Below, in pieces: positions 24,032-37,573 of a stretch of 64,000 nucleotides of DNA. The translations under genes were made by a program, and so were the position numbers. How positions within the stretch are numbered: the stretch's first letter is position 1; every line of letters begins with the position of its first letter. Under the pieces are notes generated by a model that was not told the origin of the DNA, did not search any database, and saw only the letters and a program-made list of their open reading frames with translations. The DNA comes from an uncultured Acidobacteriota bacterium (GTDB lineage: Bacteria; Acidobacteriota; Thermoanaerobaculia; Multivoradales; JAHEKO01), in the NCBI GenBank assembly GCA_963719055.1, contig CAVRAU010000023.1, forward strand, positions 71,790-135,789, written 5' to 3'.

Positions 24032-25957
24032 ATGTTGAGCGGGCTGAAGACCGAGCTGTCGCAGCGAGTAGCGGCAAGAATCCAGGCGGTATTCGACGTC
24101 GAGCACGACCCGATCGTCGAGGTTCCCCCGCGTCGGGAGCTCGGCGACCTGGCGTTTCCGGCCGCTCTGCATCTCGCTCGAGAGTTGCGGCGCTCACCCC
24201 GCGACATTGCCAACGAATTGGCGGCCGGTCTCGAGCTGCCACCGAGCGTCCGACGGGTAACGGTGGAGGGGGCGGGCTATCTCAACTTCTTCCTCGACCG
24301 CAGCGCCTTCGCCGCACAGTTGATGGCCAGCCCACTGCAGTCAGGGGAGCCGCAGGACTCTCAGAAGATCATCGTGGAGCACACCAACATCAACCCCAAC
24401 AAGGCGGCGCATATCGGGCACCTGCGCAACTCCGTCCTGGGAGACACCTTGGTACGGGTACTGAAGTCTCTAGGTTACGCGGTGGAGACCCAGAACTACA
24501 TCGACGACACCGGTGTACAGCTTGCCGATGTCGTCGTCGGATTTGTGGATCTGCGACAGATGAGTCTGGTGGAGGTGACACAGCTACCGGAGCCCTTCGA
24601 CTACTACTGTTGGGACCTCTACAGCGAAGTGGGCCAATGGTACGGCGACGACCCAGAGCGCCAGGAGCTTCGTCGTCAGACGCTCCATCAGCTCGAACAC
24701 GGTGAAGGAGAGAGGGCCGAAATAGGTCGCCTGGTGTCCCGCCGCGTGGTTCGTCGCCACCTCGCCACCATGGCTCGACTGGACGTGACCTACGATCTTC
24801 TCACCCACGAAGCCGCGATTCTCGGCTTGGATTTCTTCTCCCAGGCCTTCGAGCTGCTCGAGAAGGAAAAGGCCATTCACCTCGAAGCCGAGGGCAAGAA
24901 CGCCGGCTGCTGGGTCATGCCCCTGGCGGGGAGCGAGGAGTTTGCCGGTCTCGAGGACCCGGACAAGGTCATTGTCCGGTCCGATGGCACCGTCACCTAT
25001 GTCGGCAAGGACATCGCCTATCAGCTCTGGAAGTTCGGCTTGCTGGGCAAGGACTTCGAGTATCGGTTCTGGGACGAGGAGGACGTCTGGGAGACGACCA
25101 CCCGAGGCGTGGCGGAGCACCCGGCCTTTGGCAATGCGGATCGGGTCATCAATGTCATCGATGCCCGGCAGAGCTATCTGCAGAAGATCGTGCGCGCCGG
25201 ACTCGAAGCCCTGCACTTTCCGGCGCAGGCCGAGCAGTCGATTCACTTCGCCTACGAGATGGTCACCCTCTCCCCCGCCACCGCCCGGGCTCTGGGGTAC
25301 CTGGCAGACGACGAGGCCGACGACGCCCGCAACCTGGACATGTCCGGTCGCAAGGGGATCGGCGTCAAGGCAGACGATCTGATGGATGAGCTGGAGTCCA
25401 AGAGCCGTGAGGAGATCGCCTCGCGCAATCGCGATCTGCCGACCGCGGAGTTGGAGCTGCTCGCTAGCCAGATCGCCATCGCGGCCCTGCGGTTCTTCAT
25501 GGTGAAGGCCACCACCAATCGAGTCATCGCCTTCGATCTGGACGAAGCCTTGAACTTCGAAGGAGATTCGGGACCCTACTTGCAGTATTCCGCCGTCCGG
25601 GCACTGAATATCAAGCGGCGATTGCTGGAAGCGGGCCTGCCGACCGAAGTCGATCTGCAGGCTCTGGCGGCTCTCCCCGCCGAAGTGTGGGCCGACGATC
25701 TCTGGGATCTGATCCTGACCGTGGCGCTGATTCCCCAGAAGGTCGAGATGGCGGGCGAGACCCTCGAGCTTTCGATTCTCGCTCGGCACGCCCTCGAGCT
25801 GGCGCAACAATTCCACGCCATCTATCACCGCCACCCCATCCTCCAAGAGACCGACGAAGATCTGCGCGCCGCCCGCCTGGCCACGACCCCGATCTTTATC
25901 CGCGGATTGGAAGACCTCACCGCGTTACTGGGCATCCCTCTGCCCGCCAAGATGTAA
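24032..25957 (+). CDS. argS: Arginine--tRNA ligase
   Basis: Class-I HIGH motif NPNKAAHIGHLRN. ArgS anticodon-binding C-terminus ending ...PLPAKM. 641 aa. Confidence 0.92.
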   Translation: MLSGLKTELSQRVAARIQAVFDVEHDPIVEVPPRRELGDLAFPAALHLARELRRSPRDIANELAAGLELPPSVRRVTVEGAGYLNFFLDRSAFAAQLMASPLQSGEPQDSQKIIVEHTNINPNKAAHIGHLRNSVLGDTLVRVLKSLGYAVETQNYIDDTGVQLADVVVGFVDLRQMSLVEVTQLPEPFDYYCWDLYSEVGQWYGDDPERQELRRQTLHQLEHGEGERAEIGRLVSRRVVRRHLATMARLDVTYDLLTHEAAILGLDFFSQAFELLEKEKAIHLEAEGKNAGCWVMPLAGSEEFAGLEDPDKVIVRSDGTVTYVGKDIAYQLWKFGLLGKDFEYRFWDEEDVWETTTRGVAEHPAFGNADRVINVIDARQSYLQKIVRAGLEALHFPAQAEQSIHFAYEMVTLSPATARALGYLADDEADDARNLDMSGRKGIGVKADDLMDELESKSREEIASRNRDLPTAELELLASQIAIAALRFFMVKATTNRVIAFDLDEALNFEGDSGPYLQYSAVRALNIKRRLLEAGLPTEVDLQALAALPAEVWADDLWDLILTVALIPQKVEMAGETLELSILARHALELAQQFHAIYHRHPILQETDEDLRAARLATTPIFIRGLEDLTALLGIPLPAKM

Positions 25958-26572
25958 GGATCTCGCATCGGACGATGCAAACAGGCCGTCTTGGCCGTGC
26001 CTCTGTGCCAGTGAACAGCTCGGGCTGAGCTCGGGCATCAGAGGCCGGCGCTCGCCCGCAACTCCACGCCATCGGATCTGGCGATCATGGTCCGAATGGC
26101 GGCTTCCAGCGCGCTACTGTCCGTGCGACCCAGCATGACGCTGTCGAGAGCGCCTGTCGGCACCGCATAGGATCGAGTCCGCGCCCACCAGTCCCCTGAT
26201 GCGGAGGACTCGGACCGGCTACGGTCTGAGTCGCCTGCAGTCAGCCGCTGCGCAGCACCGATGGTACCATCGCCGGTCCAGAGGCGTCGGATCCAGCGAC
26301 CCGAACGCTGGATGGGTCCTCTACAAGGATGGGACGAGGAACGACACCGATCTTGCTGCGTGCCGACAGAGCGTCCTGGAGACCTGCCTCTATAATCGCA
26401 GCGGAGCCAGCGCGGTTCGGACGGAAGCGGGACGATCGCATCCGCCGAACGCAGGTTAGTCACCGGAGAAAGGCGAATGCCTCGGACCTCAATCGTTCCT
26501 GATCACACTGCCAGATTCAGACCTCTTAGGCAGAGGACCCAAGACGGCCTCTCGAGTCACTCCGAAGCGAGA

Positions 26573-27854
26573 TCACCAGATGTAGTCGCGGGCGATGTCG
26601 CGTTTGTCCTTGCCGGCCAGGATGTGCATGACGCGGATCTTCTTGAGGGTCACGGGAGACAGCGCCGCCAGGGGGATGTGGGTGATCTGCTTGCCCTGGA
26701 CGGCGGCATAGCGGCGCATGCGATCCGCAGGAGGATCGGCGGCGACGTGGACGACAATCTTCTCCAGGCTGTAGTCGATGGCCGCCATCAGCAGGACCTC
26801 GGCCTTGTCCTGGGCGAACCGATAGTCTCGGTCCTCCCAGACATCAAACAGTCGCCCTCGTGGAAGTGTCAGCATGAATCCGCCATAGGTAGCGCGCATG
26901 ATTCCCGGACCGACGACCTGCTCGGCCGGGCTGGTGGCGTAGAAGGCCATATCCGATTCCTGATCGTGCTCTCCCAGCCAGGTCATCGAAAAGGGGAACT
27001 GCAGCGTTCTCTGGATCCCGGTCGAAGATCACGACCACAGAGCCGGCCTCTCCAGGAGCCCTACCCTTCTCTTCCACGAAAATCCGTTCCTCGTGTAGAT
27101 GGCGGAGGGTCTCGCGAATATCGATGCCGTCCAGCATGCTGGTGGAAAAGGGCTCCGTTCTCTTGCGCTCCGCGGCGAGGATCGACACCGCCCGGTGCTG
27201 CAGAAAACGGCCGTAGTCCTCGATCACGAGATCCTCGGGCGGATAGGAACACAGACCGGTGGAATCGAAAGCGCTCAGCCAGTCCTCTGGGCTGCTGGGC
27301 TGTGGTCGCTCGCGCACCGGCACGGCGATGGGTCGACTCTTGACCCTGAGAAACCGGCGACGAAACCGCACCTTGCGAGTCCCCAGATCGAGCTCGGAGC
27401 CGTCGATGGAGACACTGGGAATCTCCGCCGACTCCTCCTGCCACGGATACGCCCGCGACGCATCGAAGACCTCCCAGGCCAGATTGTCGTCACCCACACC
27501 GCGGGCGGCGATGACCCATTCGTAGAGGCCCGGCACCAGCATCCCCTGTACCCGCGCGCATCGCCGGGCGTAGTCGAGAAACAGCCGCTGCTGCCACGGT
27601 CCGGTGTCTTCACCAGTCTGCTCCTTGTAGGAGCCCGCCCCGACCTTCCACACCACCGTCCCGAGAGCGCGCCGATCAGGAAAACCCTTGCAGCCGGCCA
27701 ATTCCCCCAGAGCTTGATGACAGGCGAAGTCCACGATCCGCCCCTTTCGCTGGTTTTCGCTCTCTCCCTTCTCTCCATGAATCACCCGCAGACCAAAACG
27801 GACCACCGAGACCTTGCGTGACAGCGCGGCAGTCAACTCGGCCGACTCCGGCAT
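26573..27854 (-). CDS. Hypothetical protein of about 427 aa, last gene of the eight-gene operon. Apparent frameshift near 26900-26990.
   Basis: Start ATG immediately after the stop of 27856..28593 (TGAGATG). Protein-like sequence across ORFs 26844..27902 and 26573..26986. No recognisable family. Confidence 0.5.
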
Positions 27855-27855
27855 C

Positions 27856-28593
27856 TCACCGCCTGCGGACACGCTCCCAGACGGCGTGCGCGAGTGGCGC
27901 ATCCGGGAGCAATCCCGTCAGGCTGTGGGGATCCAAATGCCGAATCTCCGTGTGAGACCTTCTGACGCGAGCCAACGGGTGGGCTTGAGGCTGCTGGAGA
28001 CTCGCGACCACCCCATCGACATGGGCCGCCCCGACGAGGGCCAGAATCTCCCCGTCGGGCATCTCGTCCCGGGCCTGGGCGAGATGAAAGGCCATACCTC
28101 TCTCCCGTCGAGCGTCCTCATCGGTGGCGGGAGAGCTGCGATACCGCTCCCGCAGCAGATCCAGATACCGACCGCCGCCCAGGCTCCACACCGAGTAGGG
28201 ATCCGGCACCGGATCGCGGTGCTGCTCCGCGTACGGCAGATCGGGATCGATGAACAGAATCGGCCGTTGCTGTTCCAAGGCCCATCGGGCAGCTTCCACG
28301 AGAGGGTCTCCCGGCGCCACCACCCAGACGAGAGCGTCTTCTCCAGGCTCCTCAGAGATCAAGAGCGAGATTCTCGGTAGACGCCGAACCGCTCGCAGGG
28401 TCTCGCTCTCCAGAGTCGTCGGCAACTCGAGGGCGAGCGCCGCGGGATCGACCTGGTTCAATGCGGCCCGCACCAGGGCCGTGATCTCGAGGCGCTCGTG
28501 AACGATCGGCAGGACCCGAATGCCCGGGCACGCCGACGGCGCCAGACGGTCCAGGTCTCGAGGATCAGGTGAGATCGAAATCGGTGAATTCAT
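27856..28593 (-). CDS. Putative Tiki/TraB/GumN-superfamily metallohydrolase-like protein
   Basis: N-terminal PIVHERLE...LALELP and C-terminal ILALVGAAHVDGVV match the paired His-containing motifs of the TraB/GumN/Tiki superfamily. Assignment by motif only. Overlaps the upstream AAA gene by 28 nt. Confidence 0.5.
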   Translation of the reverse strand: MNSPISISPDPRDLDRLAPSACPGIRVLPIVHERLEITALVRAALNQVDPAALALELPTTLESETLRAVRRLPRISLLISEEPGEDALVWVVAPGDPLVEAARWALEQQRPILFIDPDLPYAEQHRDPVPDPYSVWSLGGGRYLDLLRERYRSSPATDEDARRERGMAFHLAQARDEMPDGEILALVGAAHVDGVVASLQQPQAHPLARVRRSHTEIRHLDPHSLTGLLPDAPLAHAVWERVRRR

Positions 28594-29401
28594 CGTCGCT
28601 CAAGGACAGGCGCATGGCCCGCTCCACCGCTTCGCCGGCATTCTCCGCTTCACCTCGCCGCAAGACCTTCATCGCGTAGCGAACCAGATTGATGCCATCC
28701 CGCACGGTGTAGCGAAGATCCCGATCATGAGCCACACGAAGAAAGGACAGCACGTAGTCCAATACTTCTTGTTCGGCGAAAGGTACCTGCGCCTGCAGAA
28801 TCGAACGCTCTTCGTCTTCTTCGGGGAAATCGACATAGATCTGCGGCATGAGACGCGAGTGGATGTACTCGGGGATCTCGTAGGTGGAGGCGTCTTCGTT
28901 CATCGTGGTGACAAAGCGAAAGTCGGGATGGGCCGAGATGCGGATTCCGGCCACGATGCTCTCCACGTAGCGACGATGGTCCAGAAGGGGTGCCAACGAC
29001 GCCCACGACTTCTCGCTCATCCGGTTGCCTTCATCCAGAATCAGGGCACCGCCACGAATCATGGCGGTGACCAGGGACGACGCCATATAGCGCACGCCTC
29101 CGTCTGGGGACAGCACCGGCGAGACGACGAGATCCTCTGGCCGCGTGTCCATGGTCGCCTGGGCCATGTAGATGTCCAAATCGAGCTCGCGGGCTGCCGC
29201 ACAGGCGAGAGTGGTTTTGCCCACCCCAGGTTTGCCCAGCAGGCGTGGATTGAGCGGTAGGTCCGCATCCTCGATCCTGGCCCACGCAGCCAACAATTGG
29301 ATCAGAACTTCCCGCTGGCCGATCCAAGGGGGCGTCTCCTTGACCGGCGTGCCCAGATGAAGAGTCACCCCGTCGATGACAACGGTGTCTTGTGCACTCA
29401 T
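28565..29401 (-). CDS. AAA+ ATPase, AAA_5 / MoxR-CbbQ-like
   Basis: Walker A LLGKPGVGKTTLA and Walker B GALILDEGNRMSEK. About 278 aa. Confidence 0.75.
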   Translation of the reverse strand: MSAQDTVVIDGVTLHLGTPVKETPPWIGQREVLIQLLAAWARIEDADLPLNPRLLGKPGVGKTTLACAAARELDLDIYMAQATMDTRPEDLVVSPVLSPDGGVRYMASSLVTAMIRGGALILDEGNRMSEKSWASLAPLLDHRRYVESIVAGIRISAHPDFRFVTTMNEDASTYEIPEYIHSRLMPQIYVDFPEEDEERSILQAQVPFAEQEVLDYVLSFLRVAHDRDLRYTVRDGINLVRYAMKVLRRGEAENAGEAVERAMRLSLSDDEFTDFDLT

Positions 29402-29429
29402 AGAGCGGCGAGTCTACGCGAAAAGTCGA

Positions 29430-30044
29430 CTACAGCGGGATCTCGAAGATGACATCCTTGGCCCGCTTGCCATGACGGACAAAGGGGATCCCCAGGAGCC
29501 TCTCGGGGCCAAACACGATTTCATATCGGAGCTGTTTCAGGGTATCGGGCTTGCTCACCTCGGAGGCAACCAGGCAGTAGTGCGCCAGTTTCTGCGCGTC
29601 AGCCACACCGTAGCAGCCGCCCACCAAGCGCTCTCCCAGCTTCTCCCCCAAGCTCGGCAAGACCTCGGTGTATCGTCGGGCCAGCTCCGTCACCGCCTGC
29701 AGGGGCGCGTGGAAGGCCGGAATGGCGAAGGTCCCTTCTCCACCGGGCTCGTCCTCCTCGCCACCCAGAAAGAACCGCATCAGACCCTTGAACGATTTCC
29801 CGGCGGCGGTGCGTTCAGTGATCGTCACGGTCGCCGGAAGCAACCAGAACGGCAAATAGAAATCGACATTCTTGTCGGACAGGGCCACGAAGGCCACCTC
29901 GACGGGCTCCAGGCTGTGGGTTTCCTGCTCGAACCGATAGCCATTGCGGCAGGCCGTGCAGTAGTAGACGACATCCTGGCCATCGGCTCGGATTCCCGCA
30001 CCGCAGCTTGGGCAGTCCAGGGGCACCAGAGAGAATTCACCCAT
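29430..30044 (-). CDS. Zinc-ribbon protein X3, the soluble member of the paralog family X1-X3
   Basis: CPSCG...x16...CTACRNGY zinc ribbon. Shared DFYLPFWLLP motif. ATG overlaps the stop of X2 (TGATG). Confidence 0.6.
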   Translation of the reverse strand: MGEFSLVPLDCPSCGAGIRADGQDVVYYCTACRNGYRFEQETHSLEPVEVAFVALSDKNVDFYLPFWLLPATVTITERTAAGKSFKGLMRFFLGGEEDEPGGEGTFAIPAFHAPLQAVTELARRYTEVLPSLGEKLGERLVGGCYGVADAQKLAHYCLVASEVSKPDTLKQLRYEIVFGPERLLGIPFVRHGKRAKDVIFEIPL

Positions 30045-31126
30045 CACGACCACGACCCCCATCGCGGAGATCGACCCTGCATGAGATCGCCCACCATCTC
30101 GCCGAGATCATCCTTCATCTCGAACCCGGCAAGAAGCTGGGGACCCGAATCCTCGTGTCCGACACCGGTGCCTTCGACCACCACACCGCCGTGTCGGAAT
30201 TTCTTCCATCCCCACCACAACGCACCCAGGACCACGGCTCCCATGGCTGCCAGCCCCCCCAGATTGACACCGATGAAACGCACGATCGTGGTCGCGATGA
30301 AGAGCGCTGCCGCCTGGGACAGCACCATCGCCAGAGCCCGGTACAGGTCGTTGCCCGGCGCCTTGCCGTAGACCAGGCTGCCGTCCTCGGCATCGACGAG
30401 AATCTGATACGACCGGTTCTCGAAGCGATAGCGGATGATCCAGAGCGGATAGTAGATCAAGCTGAAGCGTTCCCGTAGAGTCTCGAGAAACTTGAACCGG
30501 ACCTGCGTGAGACCACGGCCGGGATCGGCGCTGGAGACGATCTGTCGACGGGCCGCGTCCTTGACTTCGGCTTCGGATCCCGTGGGGGGAAAGACCATAC
30601 CGAGCCGCTTGAGACCTTCCGGATCGAAGGGAACCAGGGGATCGTCTTGCAGATCGATCTTCTGGACACCCCACTCGGCCACATCCAGAGCTGGATAGGT
30701 GTGATCGTAGCTCTTCTCCACCGAGCGCTCGACGTCGACCTCGTAGGTCTGCGTTCGTCGGTGCTTGCCCGAGCCGACGGTCCGCCGCCGCGTCTCGGTG
30801 CCCAGAGCAAACCCCATGGCATCTGCTTGCATGCGAAAGAAGGGTAGAAATGCCAGTAGGGCCTCACCCTGCACCGCGTCACGGCGCAGCCGCCGGTCGC
30901 GACTCCAGCCTGTGGACAACCAACGCCGAGCGACCTCTTTCGCCCTTGACGCGTCCAACTTCGGAGCTACCGACCATCGGCGGATGCCGACTTCGCTGAC
31001 CGCCAGAAGAGGGGTTTCGCAGTATGGACAATCGACAACTCGCAACCCGGCGACGACATCCAAAGCCCCACCGCAGCTCGGACAGGTCAGACCCTGAACG
31101 CTCGACTCCCGGGGCTCCACAGTCAT
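30044..31126 (-). CDS. Zinc-ribbon membrane protein X2
   Basis: N-terminal CPSCGG...CPYCETP zinc ribbon, EVARRWLSTGW, LAFLPFFRMQ, C-terminal SLIYYPLWIIRYRFENRSYQILVDAEDGSLVYGKAPGN followed by two hydrophobic helices. 360 aa. Confidence 0.62.
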   Translation of the reverse strand: MTVEPRESSVQGLTCPSCGGALDVVAGLRVVDCPYCETPLLAVSEVGIRRWSVAPKLDASRAKEVARRWLSTGWSRDRRLRRDAVQGEALLAFLPFFRMQADAMGFALGTETRRRTVGSGKHRRTQTYEVDVERSVEKSYDHTYPALDVAEWGVQKIDLQDDPLVPFDPEGLKRLGMVFPPTGSEAEVKDAARRQIVSSADPGRGLTQVRFKFLETLRERFSLIYYPLWIIRYRFENRSYQILVDAEDGSLVYGKAPGNDLYRALAMVLSQAAALFIATTIVRFIGVNLGGLAAMGAVVLGALWWGWKKFRHGGVVVEGTGVGHEDSGPQLLAGFEMKDDLGEMVGDLMQGRSPRWGSWS

Positions 31127-31887
31127 ACTTTTCGTGCCACCCAGTAGGCCAGCAGGTGAGTGGAATCGCGGTGATGGCGTAGGCCACGAACTTGGCGAAG
31201 AGATTGCCGATCACCAGACCCTCGATCCCAAAGAGGATCAAACCGAGCACCGCGACCAGGACAAAGGGACTCTCGGCCTTCTCCGGGTAGACACTCGCCA
31301 ACACCTGGCCTGTCGAGGCATCGACCGCCGCATGAAAGGTCTTGCCCTCGAATGTGTAGCGACACTTCCAGAAGGGCACCCTCACCAGTGCGGTCTCGTG
31401 GATTTCTCCAACCTGCCGTTGCTCCAGCCAACCCACGGCCGTCTCCAGGGGTACCTGGACGTCGATGACCTGCATGTCGTCCTCTTCAGGCCGATAGGGT
31501 TCCAGACGACCCGCAGGGATCGACAGCTCCGTCACCTGGGGAATCGGAGTCGGTGCCGCGGGCTCGAAGAACACCCGTCTCCGCTCCGGATTCGGAGGTG
31601 CGAAACAACCAGACAGGGAAGGAGACGGCCTCGAGACCCTCGATGTGCGGCCTTGCGATCCAGATCCTTGACGGTGTCGTTCCCCGCCATCCAGCGCCGC
31701 AGTGCCGCGGTCGCCTCCTCCTCGGCCAGCAGAGGAGGCAGTCGGTAGTGGAAGACGACCTGGGCTCGATCGACAAACAGGGTGGTGTCGCAGAAGACAC
31801 AGGTCACGAACCGGTGACCCGTGGGCACCTCGTTCTTGCCCCCACACTGGGAACAGAGAACGGAGGAACCGCTCTCCTCCGGACGAC
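31115..31887 (-). CDS. Zinc-ribbon membrane protein X1 (paralog of X2/X3). At least two frameshifts at about 31590-31650. The 3' end is uncertain (possibly about 31120, or as far as 30879).
   Basis: Probable GTG start 20 nt after the SPFH stop. CSQCGG...CVFCDT zinc ribbon, ATAALRRWMAG, VSFPVWLFR (in a third frame), LVRVPFWKCRYTFEGKTFHAAVDASTGQVLASVYPEKA, then a TM helix FVLVAVLGLILFGIEGLVIGNLFAKFVAYAI. Confidence 0.45.
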
Positions 31888-31903
31888 TGGAGTCCACCTC
31901 GAA

Positions 31904-32961
31904 CCCCGTCTGTCTAGCCGCCCACCTTCGTACCGCAGGCAGGGCAGAATTTCGCCGCTTCCGGCAGCTTGCCACCACACTGATGACAGAACGCCGCACC
32001 AGCAGCGGCGGCCGCCGCACGGCAGCAGCGGCGCCACTACCGGAGTCCTGCGCCGGAGGAGCAGCTGGCGATTCGCCGCCACCGCCCGCCGGCGCCGGCT
32101 GACCGCCCTGGTCCTGCATGGCTTCCTTCATCATCTGCGGCAGCATCATCCCCATGCCGGCCCCCATGCCCACTCCCAGACCGGCCCCGACACCACCGCC
32201 GGTCTCGCCACCGGTGTTTTGTGCCGCATCGCCCATGGCCTTGGCGGCCTTGAACTTCATGTAGGCGTTCATATCGCCTACGGCAGCCATGCCAGCGCGC
32301 TCGTCGATGAGCTTCTGGACCTCGTTCGGCGGCGTGATGGCGCCCAGATACATATCCACCAGCTCGATACCGTACTTGCTGAAGTCGTCGGCAACCCTGG
32401 ACTTGAGCGCCATTCCCAACTCATCGTAGACCTTGGGCAAGTCGAAAATCGACTGCAGATTCTCGCCCAAGTACGTCGGTCAGACGAGCCACGATCACAT
32501 CTTTGTAGTACGACTCCACACCATCGGTGGTGTACACATCGTTGGTCCCGACAATCGTGTTGACGAACAGCTGGGAATTCGTGATGCGGACCGCGAACTT
32601 GCCGAAGGCCCGCAGACGGACCATCGCCAGCTCGCTGTCTCGATACGCCACCGGCTCCTTGGTTCCCCATTTGAGATCCAGAAAGGTCTTGGTGGAGACG
32701 AAGACAACAGCTGCCTGGAACGGCGACTTGCCCTCGAAGGGGATACCTAGCAGCTTGGTCAGGAAAGGCAGGTTCTGTGTTGCCAGGGTATGGCGTCCCG
32801 GGCCGAAGGTGTCGAGGGCCTTGCCATCCCGAAAAAAGACCGCCTGCTGGCTCTCTTCGACGACCAACTGACTGCCTAGTCTTGATGGCCGCGGTCCCCT
32901 GCCGCGGCACCCGGGCCACCATGGTCTGACCCGTGGGGTCGACGTATTGAATCACTTTCAT
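31904..32961 (-). CDS. SPFH/band-7 (flotillin-like) protein with C-terminal zinc ribbon. Three apparent frameshifts (about 32870, about 32450, about 32015).
   Basis: AAGGAG RBS 7 nt before ATG (MKVIQYVDPTGQTMVARVP...). SPFH core VVEESQQAVFFRDGKALDTFGPGRHTLATQNLPFL...VRLRAFGKFAVRI, then Gly/Met-rich linker. By hand translation, a zinc ribbon AFCHQCGGKLPEAAKFCPACGTKVGG-stop sits in a fourth frame. Pieces lie in ORFs 32278..33060, 32421..32867 and 31532..32470. Confidence 0.68.
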
Positions 32962-32992
32962 GATGAGTTCTCCTTGTCGGTACGCTGATCGC

Positions 32993-33520
32993 TCAACGGG
33001 AGGTCTTGACGATGTTGTTGATGATGGTTCCGCGTCCGGACCACCGCTCTTCCAGGTCACTCAGCTTCTGCAGTGCGGCTTCGACACCCGCCTCCGGATC
33101 ACCCTGTCCCGGGGTCGGAATGGCTGACAGCGAACCCGTCAGATCCTCGATCTCTCCGAGCAGCGACAGATCGAATTCATAGACCTTCTCCAACTCCACT
33201 TCGCCGATCTTCTCGACGTCGAAGAATCCCGTCACTCCATAGTCGCTGAACCGAATCGCCTGCGACAAGCCATCGAGCCGGCGATCGAGACGATCGAACA
33301 GGTGCAGAGAGCCGATCTGCGCGGCATCGGTGTAGGCTCGAGCTCGATCCCTCACGACCCCCTTGAGGTCGGCGATCGACCCCGCCAGATATTCCCGCTG
33401 CATCTTGTCGACTTCCCGCCGTAGCTCCCGGTCTTGAAAGCCACGAAATCCGGGAATCTTCTCTCCCAGGCGCTCCAGCCAGTTGCGTTGCGCCTTGGCT
33501 TCGTCAAATCCATTGGTCAT
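32993..33520 (-). CDS. Hypothetical helical protein (175 aa), first gene of the operon
   Basis: GGAGAA RBS before ATG. Charged helical sequence. Lower-GC putative promoter region upstream (33521-33613). No family recognised. Confidence 0.5.
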   Translation of the reverse strand: MTNGFDEAKAQRNWLERLGEKIPGFRGFQDRELRREVDKMQREYLAGSIADLKGVVRDRARAYTDAAQIGSLHLFDRLDRRLDGLSQAIRFSDYGVTGFFDVEKIGEVELEKVYEFDLSLLGEIEDLTGSLSAIPTPGQGDPEAGVEAALQKLSDLEERWSGRGTIINNIVKTSR

Positions 33521-33613
33521 CGGTTTTGTTCTCCAGTTGAGTTGGACTGTGCAGACATGCTAGCAAAGGGCCTCTTCTCTGGCTTCACTGCAGACTACGT
33601 TCGTGAAGGCACC

Positions 33614-34189
33614 CTATTCACGCTGCCTCGCCCAATCCATCAGCTTGACGGAGGCCACGCTGATCAGGGCGGCGACGGCGTTGAAGGTCACATCCCGAAC
33701 ATCGTAGACCCGATTGGGCAAGATGGCCTGGATCCCTTCGTCGAGCCAGCCGATGATGCCGGTACTAACGACAGCGGTCGCAAACGGCTGTAGGCGAGCG
33801 ACTCGATCCCCGACATCGATGCCGGTTTCGACCAGCCTGGCTCGGCGCTCGCAGAGAGCCAGATAGATCAGGGCCGCTACCACCCCATACTCCAGAAAAT
33901 GCAGCCGTTCCTCCGGCATCATGGGAATCGCCGTCAGCAGTGCGAGATAGCCCGCCCCGATGACACCTGTGGTGACCAAGGCCCGCCACCCCGCACGGAT
34001 CGCGAAAAGACGCCAGGTAACCAGACTCCCTGCCGCGAGAAAAGACAGCGCCACCGCCAGACGGAGAAGATTCCGTTCCCGGAGCAGCTCCGCTGCGGGC
34101 CGCGCGATGTAGAGAGACGAGTAGATCAACAACGTGCAGAGGCCGGCCGCGAACCAGAGGCGTTTCTCACGCCTGGAAGCAAAGACCAT
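33614..34189 (-). CDS. VanZ-like membrane protein
   Basis: Four hydrophobic helices and a VanZ-like WLDEGIQAILPNRVYDVRDVTFNAVAALI segment. Directly downstream of ftsZ. Confidence 0.6.
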   Translation of the reverse strand: MVFASRREKRLWFAAGLCTLLIYSSLYIARPAAELLRERNLLRLAVALSFLAAGSLVTWRLFAIRAGWRALVTTGVIGAGYLALLTAIPMMPEERLHFLEYGVVAALIYLALCERRARLVETGIDVGDRVARLQPFATAVVSTGIIGWLDEGIQAILPNRVYDVRDVTFNAVAALISVASVKLMDWARQRE

Positions 34190-34247
34190 CTGGCCAGCGA
34201 CCGACCCCTGCGGAGCACGGAAGAAGGAGGTTTACGCGCAATCGGCT

Positions 34248-35522
34248 CTAGTCCATCTGCTTGCGAAGCACCGTGGGGATATCGAAATCGTCCACGTTTG
34301 ACCAGTTTGGACCGTAACCGTTCGGATCATCGTTCTGAGCTTGAGCGATGACCTTGCGATAGAAGGGAATGTCCTCCCCCTCCTCTTCCGCCATCACAGC
34401 TGGCTCGGGCAGCGGCTCGTCGTAGACCGGCCCGCTTTCAGCCTCGAAAGACTGCTGGACGGGGCGCGCTGGCAGACGGGCCCCGGTTTGCTCGCCGCCA
34501 AATCCGGTGGCGATGACCGTCACCTTCATGTTCTCGTCCATGTCCTCGCGCACGACCAGACCCGAGATGATGTTGGCTGTCGGATCGACCGCCTCGGCGA
34601 TGACCCGCGCCGCCTCGTCCACCTCGTGCAGGCTGAGATCCATGCCGCCGGAGATATTCAGCAGCACTCCCTTCGCACCCTCGATGGAGGTCTCCTCCAA
34701 CAAGGGCGACGAGATCGCTCGCTGGGCGGCCTCGAGGGCCCGATTCTCGCCCTTGGCGATGCCCGTTCCCATCAGCGCCATGCCCATGCCGGTCATGATC
34801 GTTTTGACATCGGCGAAATCCACATTCACCTCGCCCGGAACCGTGATCAGATCGCTGATGCCCTGCACGGCCTGCCGCAGAACGTCGTCGGCGATCCGAA
34901 AGGCCTCGGTCAGCGGCGTACCCCGTTCGACAAAGCTGAGAAGGCGCTCGTTGGGAATGGTGATGAGGGTATCTACCGCCTCCCGCAACTCCTCGACACC
35001 GCGCTCCGCCAGTTCCTGACGCCGGCGTCCTTCGAAAGAGAAGGGCTTGGTGACGACGGCCACCGTCAAGGCTCCCAGCTCAGAAGCCAGGGAGGCAAAG
35101 ATGGGCAGAGCACCCGTCCCGGTGCCGCCTCCGAGTCCAGCCGTCAGAAATACCATGTCGGCGCCGTCGAGAAGCTCGAGAATGCGCTCGGTATCCTCCA
35201 GAGCCGACTTGCGACCGATCTCCGGATCGCCTCCGGCTCCCAGTCCCCGGGTCAGGGAGGAACCGAGTTGCACCTTGACCGGCGCCCGGCCACCTCGCAA
35301 GGCCTGCAGATCGGTGTTGCCGGCAATGAACTCGATGCCTCTCATCTTGCAGTCGATCATCCGGTTGACGGCGTTGCCACCGCCACCGCCAACCCCTACC
35401 ACTTTGATTCTCGCGGGGACGCTCTCGGCCTCTTCGATGGTAATGGACAGGCCGGGCTCCATCTCCTGGTCGTCGAATAAGATCATTTCGCTGTTCTCCT
35501 TCCGTGCTCCGTTGACGCTCAT
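34248..35522 (-). CDS. ftsZ: Cell division GTPase FtsZ
   Basis: Tubulin signature [15 protein letters not shown] plus NTDLQAL and [11 protein letters not shown]. Start could be the internal ATG at about 35489. Confidence 0.93.
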
Positions 35523-36769: not shown

Positions 36770-37573
36770 CCCTCCTGACTGCGCGGATCGCCCGCGGGTT
36801 GGATAACTATCTGACGAGAGAATCGAAGATCCACTGCCTCGACCGAGGCGAATCGCCGGGAGATCTCTGGCAGCAGTGCAACGAGCTTGTCGATTTGTTC
36901 TGCCACGTCCCCAGCACTGACAAGGATCGGAAAATCCAGACCTGCGGTGTAGATTCGATAGTCACCCAGGCCCATCACCTCGATTTCCGAGAGCCCCCGG
37001 CTGATCTCGGGAGCCAGTCGCTCCAGACTGGCTGCCATCTCCAGAGCCGGCGCCACCTCCAGAGCTGCCCCAGGTGCCACACTCAGAAGAACGAGATCGA
37101 CTGGACCCTCGAGATCGTAGGCGCCAATGACGAAGCCATCGCCGTCGACATAGAAGAGCTCACCGTCGCTGACGCAACAGCGCTACCGGCAATCGTTCCT
37201 CGATCTGCACTACCAATCCGTCTGGAAGCTCTTTGCGAATCGCTGCGCTCTTGACCCAGGGATTCCCGGTCAGCCTGCCCTCGACGTCCTCCAGAGAAAG
37301 GCTCAGAAGATGCCGACCACGCAATGGCGTCAGAGCCGCTGCGACCTCCTCGGTGGATATGTGGACCGTGGTGCCGATTTTCACCTGCTGGAGAAGAAAT
37401 CTCGGAGAGGTATAGATCCACAGGGCGGCCGCCAACGGCAGTCCAACCACAAGTACGGCCAGGAGAAAGGGCTTCAGCAGCATCAGAGTCCGGCTGCGCC
37501 GGCGGTGCGGCACGACGAATCGACGACGGCGGAAGGCACTCGAACGCTCGATGGTGAGTCGCTGCGTCGTCAT
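36766..37573 (-). CDS. ftsQ: Cell division protein FtsQ. Single frameshift at about 37165.
   Basis: TM helix plus POTRA domain in ORF 37160..37573. By hand translation, ...IEERLPVALLRQRR ends at a TGA while the -1 frame continues SDGELFYVDGDGFVIGAYDLEG... into ORF 36766..37080. Confidence 0.75.

Follow-up and report, generated by a model that had tools for sequence, protein, structure and literature searches.

Gene organisation of the locus

The DNA analysed here is a stretch of 64,000 nucleotides (nt) of contig CAVRAU010000023.1 from an uncultured Acidobacteriota bacterium of the Thermoanaerobaculia (hereafter the window), and this work centres on a row of co-oriented genes in it that encodes an SPFH protein, three zinc-ribbon paralogs and an AAA_5 ATPase. 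The listing of open reading frames (ORFs) and the translation of the window place this row head-to-tail on the minus strand, from 33520 down to 26573. It is flanked by argS (24032-25957, plus strand) on one side and, on the other, by ftsZ, ftsA, ftsQ, murC, murG and ftsW of the division and cell wall (dcw) cluster, from 34248 onward on the minus strand. Such a row between argS and the dcw cluster had been reported in the initial annotation, made from the sequence alone, where it was described as an eight-gene operon with no recognised counterpart. However, the row is made up of seven genes, which belong to two separable evolutionary modules.

Module 1 (33520-29430) is a cassette of five genes, all on the minus strand. 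The first of them, geneA (32993-33520), encodes a soluble, all-helical protein of 175 amino acids (aa) and has a GGAG ribosome-binding site at 33531-33534. The SPFH gene, of the YdjI/SamI type, occupies 31914-32961 (coordinates transferred from L004, a metagenomic contig 97.6% identical to the window) and is followed by three genes named X1, X2 and X3. X1 (31123-31897; 257 aa) and X2 (30044-31126; 360 aa) are YdjG-like, the former being frame-broken in the window and the latter an intact ORF, and X3 (29430-30062, with an alternative start at 30044; 210 aa) encodes a soluble paralog. Module 2 (29401-26573), on the same strand, consists of the gene for an AAA_5 ATPase of the NorQ/CbbQ/MoxR class (28565-29401; 278 aa) and a large gene (26573-28593; about 672 aa), whose product has a DUF5682/TraB-like N-terminal domain and a C-terminal two-thirds without any match. 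The X1 stop and the X2 start overlap by 4 nt, the alternative start of X3 produces a TGATG overlap with the X2 stop, the AAA gene lies 28 nt after X3, and the AAA and large genes overlap by 29 nt. The seven genes are probably co-transcribed.

The TGATG junction and the overlap of the AAA gene with the next gene had already been pointed out, together with a TGAGATG junction further downstream, which turned out to be the product of a 1-nt insertion at about 27865. This insertion also accounts for the former count of eight genes: the "Tiki-like" ORF of 245 aa and the "unknown" protein of 430 aa are one gene in every intact relative (L001, L002, L005, L006 and 11 further loci), where a single ORF of 661-695 aa comes directly after the AAA gene. 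The list of products was otherwise borne out, as it comprises a helical protein of 175 aa, an SPFH protein with a C-terminal zinc ribbon, three zinc-ribbon paralogs (two of them membrane-anchored) and the AAA_5 ATPase. The domain assignments also hold for the SPFH protein and its zinc ribbon, the three zinc-ribbon paralogs and the MoxR/CbbQ-class ATPase. Among the window products, Pfam recognised Band_7_1 plus a C-terminal zinc ribbon in the second gene and AAA_5 in the sixth, and no Pfam family above threshold was found in the remaining products of the row. A scan of 25800-34300 against Rfam gave no RNA family.

A lower-GC promoter region had been proposed in front of the row. The GC content falls mildly, to 0.58, upstream of geneA, and an extended -10 promoter-like element, TGCTAGCAT (TGnTAnnnT), is located at 33557-33565 on the minus strand, 37-45 nt upstream of the geneA ATG. 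Of 21 high-GC relatives, 12 have the same motif 33-45 nt ahead of geneA, whereas it occurs in 0.5% of random 64-nt windows from the same loci; this conservation supports the existence of a promoter in front of geneA. On the other hand, scans for consensus sigma-70 promoters and terminators were uninformative, and no consensus -35/-10 pair precedes geneA.

Conservation of the five-gene cassette in Bacteria and Archaea

X2 has hundreds of close homologs, all of them annotated as hypothetical and mostly coming from metagenome-assembled genomes of Thermoanaerobaculia; the best 120 matches listed, for geneA as for X2, were all close relatives. A scan with the X2 alignment, in which each species was represented by one genome, matched 208 species. 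The locus counts given below rest on the best 80 of these 208 species loci, from Thermoanaerobaculia, Holophagae and Ignavibacteria, which were searched by tblastn with the seven proteins of the row. The arrangement geneA-SPFH-X1-X2-X3, in this order, was recovered in 54 of the 58 species-level loci of sufficient length to hold it, and in the other four, all from Ignavibacteria, only geneA went undetected. Clustering of the flanking ORFs revealed no further family common to more than 17 of the 80 loci.

More distant members of the X2 family were reached by a profile search of 1.84 billion representative sequences and by a second query with an archaeal member. The profile search produced 1614 clusters at 50% identity (363 with E ≤1e-10 and 64 with E ≤1e-30), and one X2-related cluster comes from Methanocalculus. 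Four loci of Methanomicrobiales carry separate X1, X2 and X3 orthologs in the order X1-X2-X3, with hmmsearch E values of about 1e-50 for X1, 1e-51 to 1e-63 for X2 and 1e-28 to 1e-34 for X3. In two of them the genes lie on one strand as X1-X2-X3-(small membrane protein)-geneA-SPFH, the archaeal geneA products being matched with E 1e-24 to 1e-32 and the Band_7_1/zinc-ribbon SPFH proteins with E of about 1e-60 to 1e-66. The third locus has the geneA-SPFH pair 4.6 kb away on the opposite strand, and the pair was not found within 8 kb of the fourth. As judged from these gene orders, geneA-SPFH and X1-X2-X3 behave as sub-blocks. The bacterial clusters and the permuted archaeal ones, taken together, indicate that the five components are distinct and old orthologous groups whose linkage has outlived rearrangement.

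The small protein encoded between X3 and geneA in two of the archaeal loci has 107-114 aa and is predicted to be a multi-pass membrane protein (L092:11637-11981 and L093:11605-11928); no counterpart was found in the bacterial cassettes. Besides, Methanocalculus sp. MSAO_Arc1 has two diverged X2 paralogs (P0320 and P0401, about 40% identical), each in its own X1-X2-X3 set (L090 and L092).

Proteins of the cassette and their relationship with YdjG and YdjI

SPFH proteins are universal membrane organisers. The one encoded by the cassette matches Pfam PF13421 (Band_7_1) with E 5e-59, together with Zn_Ribbon_1, and shows a weaker match to Band_7 (E 9e-12). Its Band_7_1 domain is joined by a low-complexity linker rich in Gly and Met to a C-terminal CxxC...CxxC zinc ribbon; no hydrophobic or membrane segment was detected in the protein, and a PDB sequence search gave no match. 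It shares the SPFH fold family with the classical flotillins and stomatins (FloA/FloT, HflK/C and stomatin-NfeD), but it differs from them in belonging to the Pfam family Band_7_1 and in having neither a membrane anchor of its own, nor an NfeD partner, nor the flotillin coiled-coil.

X1 begins with a zinc ribbon, continues with a beta-rich domain and ends in a two-helix membrane hairpin; in the intact orthologue from L002 the CxxC motifs are at residues 15 and 33 and the hydrophobic stretch spans residues 209-254. X2 has the same layout with a larger beta-rich domain, and the cysteines C15, C18, C33 and C36 are invariant in its alignment (A1). In the AlphaFold2 model of X2 (predicted local distance difference test, pLDDT, 76.6) the zinc ribbon is accompanied by very long beta hairpins and by two helices at the C-terminus, and no significant PDB neighbour was found for X2 by structure, nor any by profile-sequence search. 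X3 contains a zinc ribbon and the N-terminal part of the domain shared by X proteins and YdjG, and lacks hydrophobic segments. The paralogs are related to each other, with hhalign probabilities of 99.6% (E 2e-24) for X1 and X2 and 94% (E 1e-7) for X1 and X3.

The product of geneA is modelled by AlphaFold as a five-helix bundle (pLDDT 82), whose structural neighbours are only designed or generic bundles. It shows a sub-threshold NCBIfam match to NF047596 (LIMLP_15305 family; E 1e-9); as this family carries a Leptospira name, geneA, or the whole cassette, may also exist in Spirochaetes. Throughout the cassettes geneA is encoded directly upstream of the SPFH gene, and it holds the first-gene position that pspA has in Bacillus. 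The possibility that it is a PspA analogue by sequence or fold was considered and rejected; the protein has no match to PspA.

The B. subtilis pspA-ydjGHI locus, also named samGHI and located here by means of a published ydjG primer, is an experimentally studied system (PMC8581546; bioRxiv 10.64898/2026.02.06.704340; PMC11237479). In contrast to the claim that the row has no recognised counterpart, two of its protein types have relatives there. The SPFH protein aligns with YdjI with an hhalign probability of 99.9% (E 3e-31), and BLASTP extends the similarity over the full length, including the zinc ribbon (E 3e-26). As regards YdjG, hhalign matched it to X1 (97.6%, E 4e-12), to X2 (96.3%, E 2e-9; 84% and E 8e-6 when alignment A1 was used) and, over 75 columns of the N-terminal part, to X3 (92.4%, E 5e-7), and BLASTP with YdjG reaches representatives of the X2 family directly, down to E 6e-11. 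These alignments identify the SPFH protein as a homolog of YdjI/SamI, and X1-X3, three non-redundant zinc-ribbon proteins of which X1 and X2 are predicted to be membrane-anchored and X3 soluble, as homologs of YdjG/SamG. A role of X3 as the equivalent of YdjH, the third product of ydjGHI, was rejected; no cassette protein aligns with YdjH.

The resemblance extends to the design of both systems. The SPFH protein and YdjI/SamI are both soluble Band_7_1 proteins in which a Gly/Met-rich linker leads to a zinc ribbon at the C-terminus, and X1 and X2 share with YdjG/SamG the zinc ribbon, the uncharacterised beta-rich domain and the membrane anchor at the C-terminus (PMC8581546; PMC11237479); in both cases the genes are tightly linked in one operon. 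Nevertheless, several differences are evident. The cassette includes neither PspA nor the TPM-domain protein YdjH/SamH, and the first-gene position is taken by the unrelated 175-aa helical protein. It has three YdjG-type paralogs with one ribbon each, whereas Bacillus has one protein with two ribbons, and the anchor of X1 and X2 is a two-helix hairpin instead of the single membrane helix of the Bacillus protein. The SPFH gene precedes the anchor genes in the cassette and follows them in Bacillus; the cassette promoter has an extended -10 element, whereas that of Bacillus is of the sigma-W type. Finally, the hosts of the cassette are Acidobacteriota, Ignavibacteria and Methanomicrobiales.

The AAA_5 ATPase and its partner

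The ATPase of module 2 matches Pfam AAA_5 with E 7e-16. Its Walker A motif is GKPGVGKT and its Walker B motif LILDE in the window (ALVLDE in the L002 orthologue). The best PDB sequence matches are midasin AAA modules, NorQ and CbbQ, of which NorQ and CbbQ are the closest over the full length. In all 14 loci in which it was found, the ATPase gene is followed directly by the large gene or by the end of the contig. A constant association with one large partner gene is also found in the NorQ/NorD, CbbQ/CbbO and MoxR-VWA pairs; however, no VWA/MIDAS domain was detected in the partner from the window, which has a weak DUF5682/TraB-like N-terminus instead, and no VWA family appeared in the Pfam matches of 11 homologs of the large protein, considering E values up to 1.

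The designation of this partner as Tiki/TraB-like is weakly supported, and for its N-terminus alone. DUF5682 was matched below threshold in 6 of the 11 homologs, with E 1.4e-5 at best and a top score of 21 bits, the cut-off being 26, over positions 1-81 of the 727 of the model, which correspond to the N-terminal 80-120 residues, and TraB_PrgY_gumN was matched in 2 of the 11 (E 0.028). The large protein weakly resembles the DUF5682 and TraB/PrgY/GumN/Tiki families, in the case of DUF5682 over the start of the model, and departs from them in that all matches stay below the curated thresholds and concern the N-terminus only. The motifs PxVHE..E, VELP and GAAH resemble the TraB/Tiki pattern by eye, and the residues H32, E36, E56 and G188-A-A-H191, invariant in the alignment of the large protein (A3), are compatible with the TraB family, the profile match being weak. 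The remaining residues, about 550, match nothing, and a profile of the large protein found no relative among PDB sequences. The ATPase and the large protein probably constitute a chaperone-like remodelling pair.

The relationship of this pair with the cassette is the point at which the description of the row as one unit fails. Among 51 informative loci, module 2 is adjacent to the cassette in 8 and lies 2.4-8.4 kb downstream in 6, and it is absent within at least 8 kb in 37. It was not found in the four archaeal loci, nor in those of Ignavibacteria or Holophagae, and in L001, a complete genome of 5.1 Mb, X3 and the AAA gene have three unrelated genes between them, of which two are encoded on the opposite strand. 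Conservation of the neighbourhood thus holds for the X family with geneA and the SPFH gene and does not extend to the AAA pair. According to these comparisons, module 2 adjoins the cassette only in the Thermoanaerobaculia subclade of the window and is not a general component of it, so the unrelated AAA+/DUF5682-like pair can be set apart from the system in the corrected model of seven genes.

An alternative, close to the reading of the initial annotation, is that, in the lineage of the window, the seven genes form one machine. The AAA+ ATPase and its TraB/DUF5682-like partner would then act on the SPFH/zinc-ribbon assembly, remodelling it or taking it apart, much as Vps4 acts on ESCRT-III. In agreement with this, both modules share the strand and the short gap between them has no predicted terminator; the pair adjoins the cassette in the 8 related species mentioned and, in the 6 more, it is on the same strand within 10 kb downstream; and phage shock protein (PSP)/SPFH systems have repeatedly been linked to AAA+ ATPases in other contexts (PMC11237479). 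Nevertheless, the adjacency is confined to the closest clade of the window, the absences include all Ignavibacteria and Holophagae loci as well as the archaeal ones, and unrelated genes intervene in L001; a single machine is considered rather unlikely.

Interrupted reading frames

Nine uncompensated insertions or deletions (indels) of 1 nt break the SPFH gene, X1 and the large gene in the window. For the first two genes the reference was L004, with respect to which the window shows seven indels, all within 32881-31156 and none in a homopolymer: insertions at 32881, 32472, 32019 and 32016 in the SPFH gene, and insertions at 31646 and 31577 and a deletion at 31156 in X1. In the large gene, insertions at about 27865 and about 27005 leave three separate ORFs, and tblastn with the L002 large protein covered its residues 1-672 in three frames of the window. 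A plot of third-position GC content by frame was too noisy, at the GC content of the window, to map frameshifts.

These indels are probably sequence or assembly errors, because two genes outside the locus are also frameshifted and because the codon differences are mostly synonymous. When flanking genes were used in tblastn, ftsQ (about 37158-37184) and an aldolase gene (about 21312) changed frame with respect to their L002 orthologs; the frameshift in ftsQ, an essential gene, points to an assembly error. After correction of the frames, the comparison with L004 gives 44 synonymous and 2 non-synonymous codon differences in the SPFH gene, and 19 and 8, respectively, in X1, with no new stop codons in either of them.

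If, on the contrary, the nine indels were real, the SPFH gene, X1 and the large gene would be inactive and the row would be a decaying cluster of pseudogenes. The concentration of nine uncompensated indels in 7 kb, their position outside homopolymers, and the lower density of the flanks (2 indels in about 20 kb) can be adduced for decay. Against it, an essential gene is affected in the same way, the corrected frames are under strong purifying selection, and the 97.6%-identical contig and all other relatives are intact; decay of the cluster seems improbable.

Relative to L004, synonymous changes affect 44 of 347 codons in the SPFH gene, 11 of 412 in ftsZ and 4 of 175 in geneA, and this several-fold excess in the SPFH gene may reflect a recombination tract.

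Proposed function of the cassette

The Bacillus ydjGHI system is a sigma-W envelope-stress operon (PMC8581546). In it, soluble YdjI is brought to the membrane by the membrane proteins YdjG and YdjH; the formation of PspA foci depends on YdjI, which also keeps the signalling activity of these membrane components in check (PMC8581546; bioRxiv 10.64898/2026.02.06.704340). The homology, gene order, paralogy, predicted topology and phyletic conservation shown above lead us to consider it fairly probable that the row contains a membrane-stress cassette of the YdjG/YdjI type next to a separately evolving AAA pair, the indels being most likely errors. A membrane stress-sensing role had already been guessed for the row, and the homology to YdjG and YdjI is in line with it.

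Since in Bacillus YdjG/YdjH recruit YdjI, and YdjI organises PspA and restrains stress signalling, a comparable mechanism can be proposed for the cassette. X1 and X2, together with X3, would form a hetero-oligomeric anchor at the cytoplasmic face of the membrane, which would recruit an oligomer of the SPFH protein. The geneA protein would then act as a soluble partner or effector of the SPFH protein, and the whole assembly could sense or buffer membrane stress without an operon-encoded PspA. The recruitment of the SPFH protein, the role of geneA and the stress function are suggested here by analogy with Bacillus.

Several observations weigh against a YdjG/YdjI-type stress function. The similarity between the X proteins and YdjG is remote (20-25% identity), no solved structure was found to be related to the soluble domain of these proteins, and no relative of known function was detected for geneA. 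No cassette protein aligns with YdjH, a TPM-domain protein, the hhalign probability being 0.3% at most. Searches by tblastn, whose sensitivity with Bacillus queries is low, gave no match to YdjH or PspA in the window or in the 80 loci, covering the cassettes and their 10-kb flanks. As PspA and YdjH are the effector and the main signalling partner in Bacillus, their absence near the cassette means that the functional analogy may not carry over. Moreover, the promoter of geneA, judged by its motif, looks like a housekeeping promoter and not like a stress promoter of the extracytoplasmic function (ECF) type, and, as the AAA gene starts 28 nt after X3 and no terminator is predicted in between, the AAA pair may work together with the cassette in this lineage.

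A further-reaching proposal is that geneA-SPFH-X1-X2-X3 is an ancient, PspA-independent membrane-surveillance complex of five parts, common to Bacteria and Archaea, in which the three non-redundant zinc-ribbon subunits would dock the SPFH oligomer and the helical-bundle geneA protein would be the effector. Bacillus YdjG/YdjI would then be a reduced derivative that later gained PspA and YdjH, and the NorQ-like AAA+/TraB-like pair would have been recruited as a dedicated remodeller in one Thermoanaerobaculia clade. This proposal is put forward only tentatively.

The way in which anchor-less bacterial SPFH proteins of the YdjI/SamI type arrive at the membrane, and their targets there, are so far known from one Bacillus operon. 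The YdjG/YdjI core belongs to a far wider and strictly conserved cassette of five genes without PspA, present in Acidobacteriota, Ignavibacteria and methanogenic archaea, which suggests that the link with PspA in Firmicutes is secondary. Besides, the cassette offers a defined set of partners, namely three anchor paralogs and one new helical protein. Its five-gene form was not met in the literature searched, and the literature on DUF5682, Band_7_1 and LIMLP_15305 yielded nothing beyond one locus-tag listing.

From its position at the end of the dcw cluster, the cassette could also be thought to serve mainly the control of cell division or peptidoglycan synthesis. In 17 of the 80 loci it follows ftsZ on the same strand, either directly or after a VanZ-like gene, and in B. 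subtilis ydjG and ydjH mutants peptidoglycan synthesis is mislocalised under alkali stress (PMC8581546). However, linkage with the dcw genes is limited to one Thermoanaerobaculia clade, with none in Ignavibacteria, Holophagae or archaea, and the Methanomicrobiales, which possess the cassette, have no murein; we give little credence to such a specialised role.

A defence role of the cassette is unlikely. An anti-phage or conflict module was the other function considered in the initial annotation, and an interpretation of this kind, with a membrane-associated sensor and an ATPase/hydrolase effector, is highly improbable. The zinc ribbons, the AAA ATPase and the putative hydrolase give the cassette a superficially defence-like appearance, but in PADLOC-DB v2 the ATPase alone, through its generic AAA domain, found weak matches (TRIP13 and IetA models, E 6e-5 or weaker) and the other products of the row none. 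Genes of mobile elements or of defence do not recur in the neighbourhood. In 17 loci the cassette has a stable place in housekeeping surroundings, beside ftsZ and VanZ, and its conservation from species to species throughout entire classes differs from the patchy distribution of defence islands. Moreover, the homologous Bacillus system is an envelope-stress operon (PMC8581546).

Flanking sequences

The stretch of about 400 bp between the large gene and argS (26104-26497) is 72.7% identical to L005/L006, where it is found in inverted orientation. At the equivalent position L002 carries a gene for a methyltransferase of 262 aa; the window has no methyltransferase gene there, and Rfam detected no RNA in this stretch. 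At the other end of the row, a gene encoding a VanZ-like membrane protein (33614-34189, same strand) is placed between ftsZ and the cassette. In about 20 of the related Thermoanaerobaculia loci, tblastn located a VanZ-like gene ahead of geneA; L010 and L011 lack it, and there geneA begins 59 nt after ftsZ.

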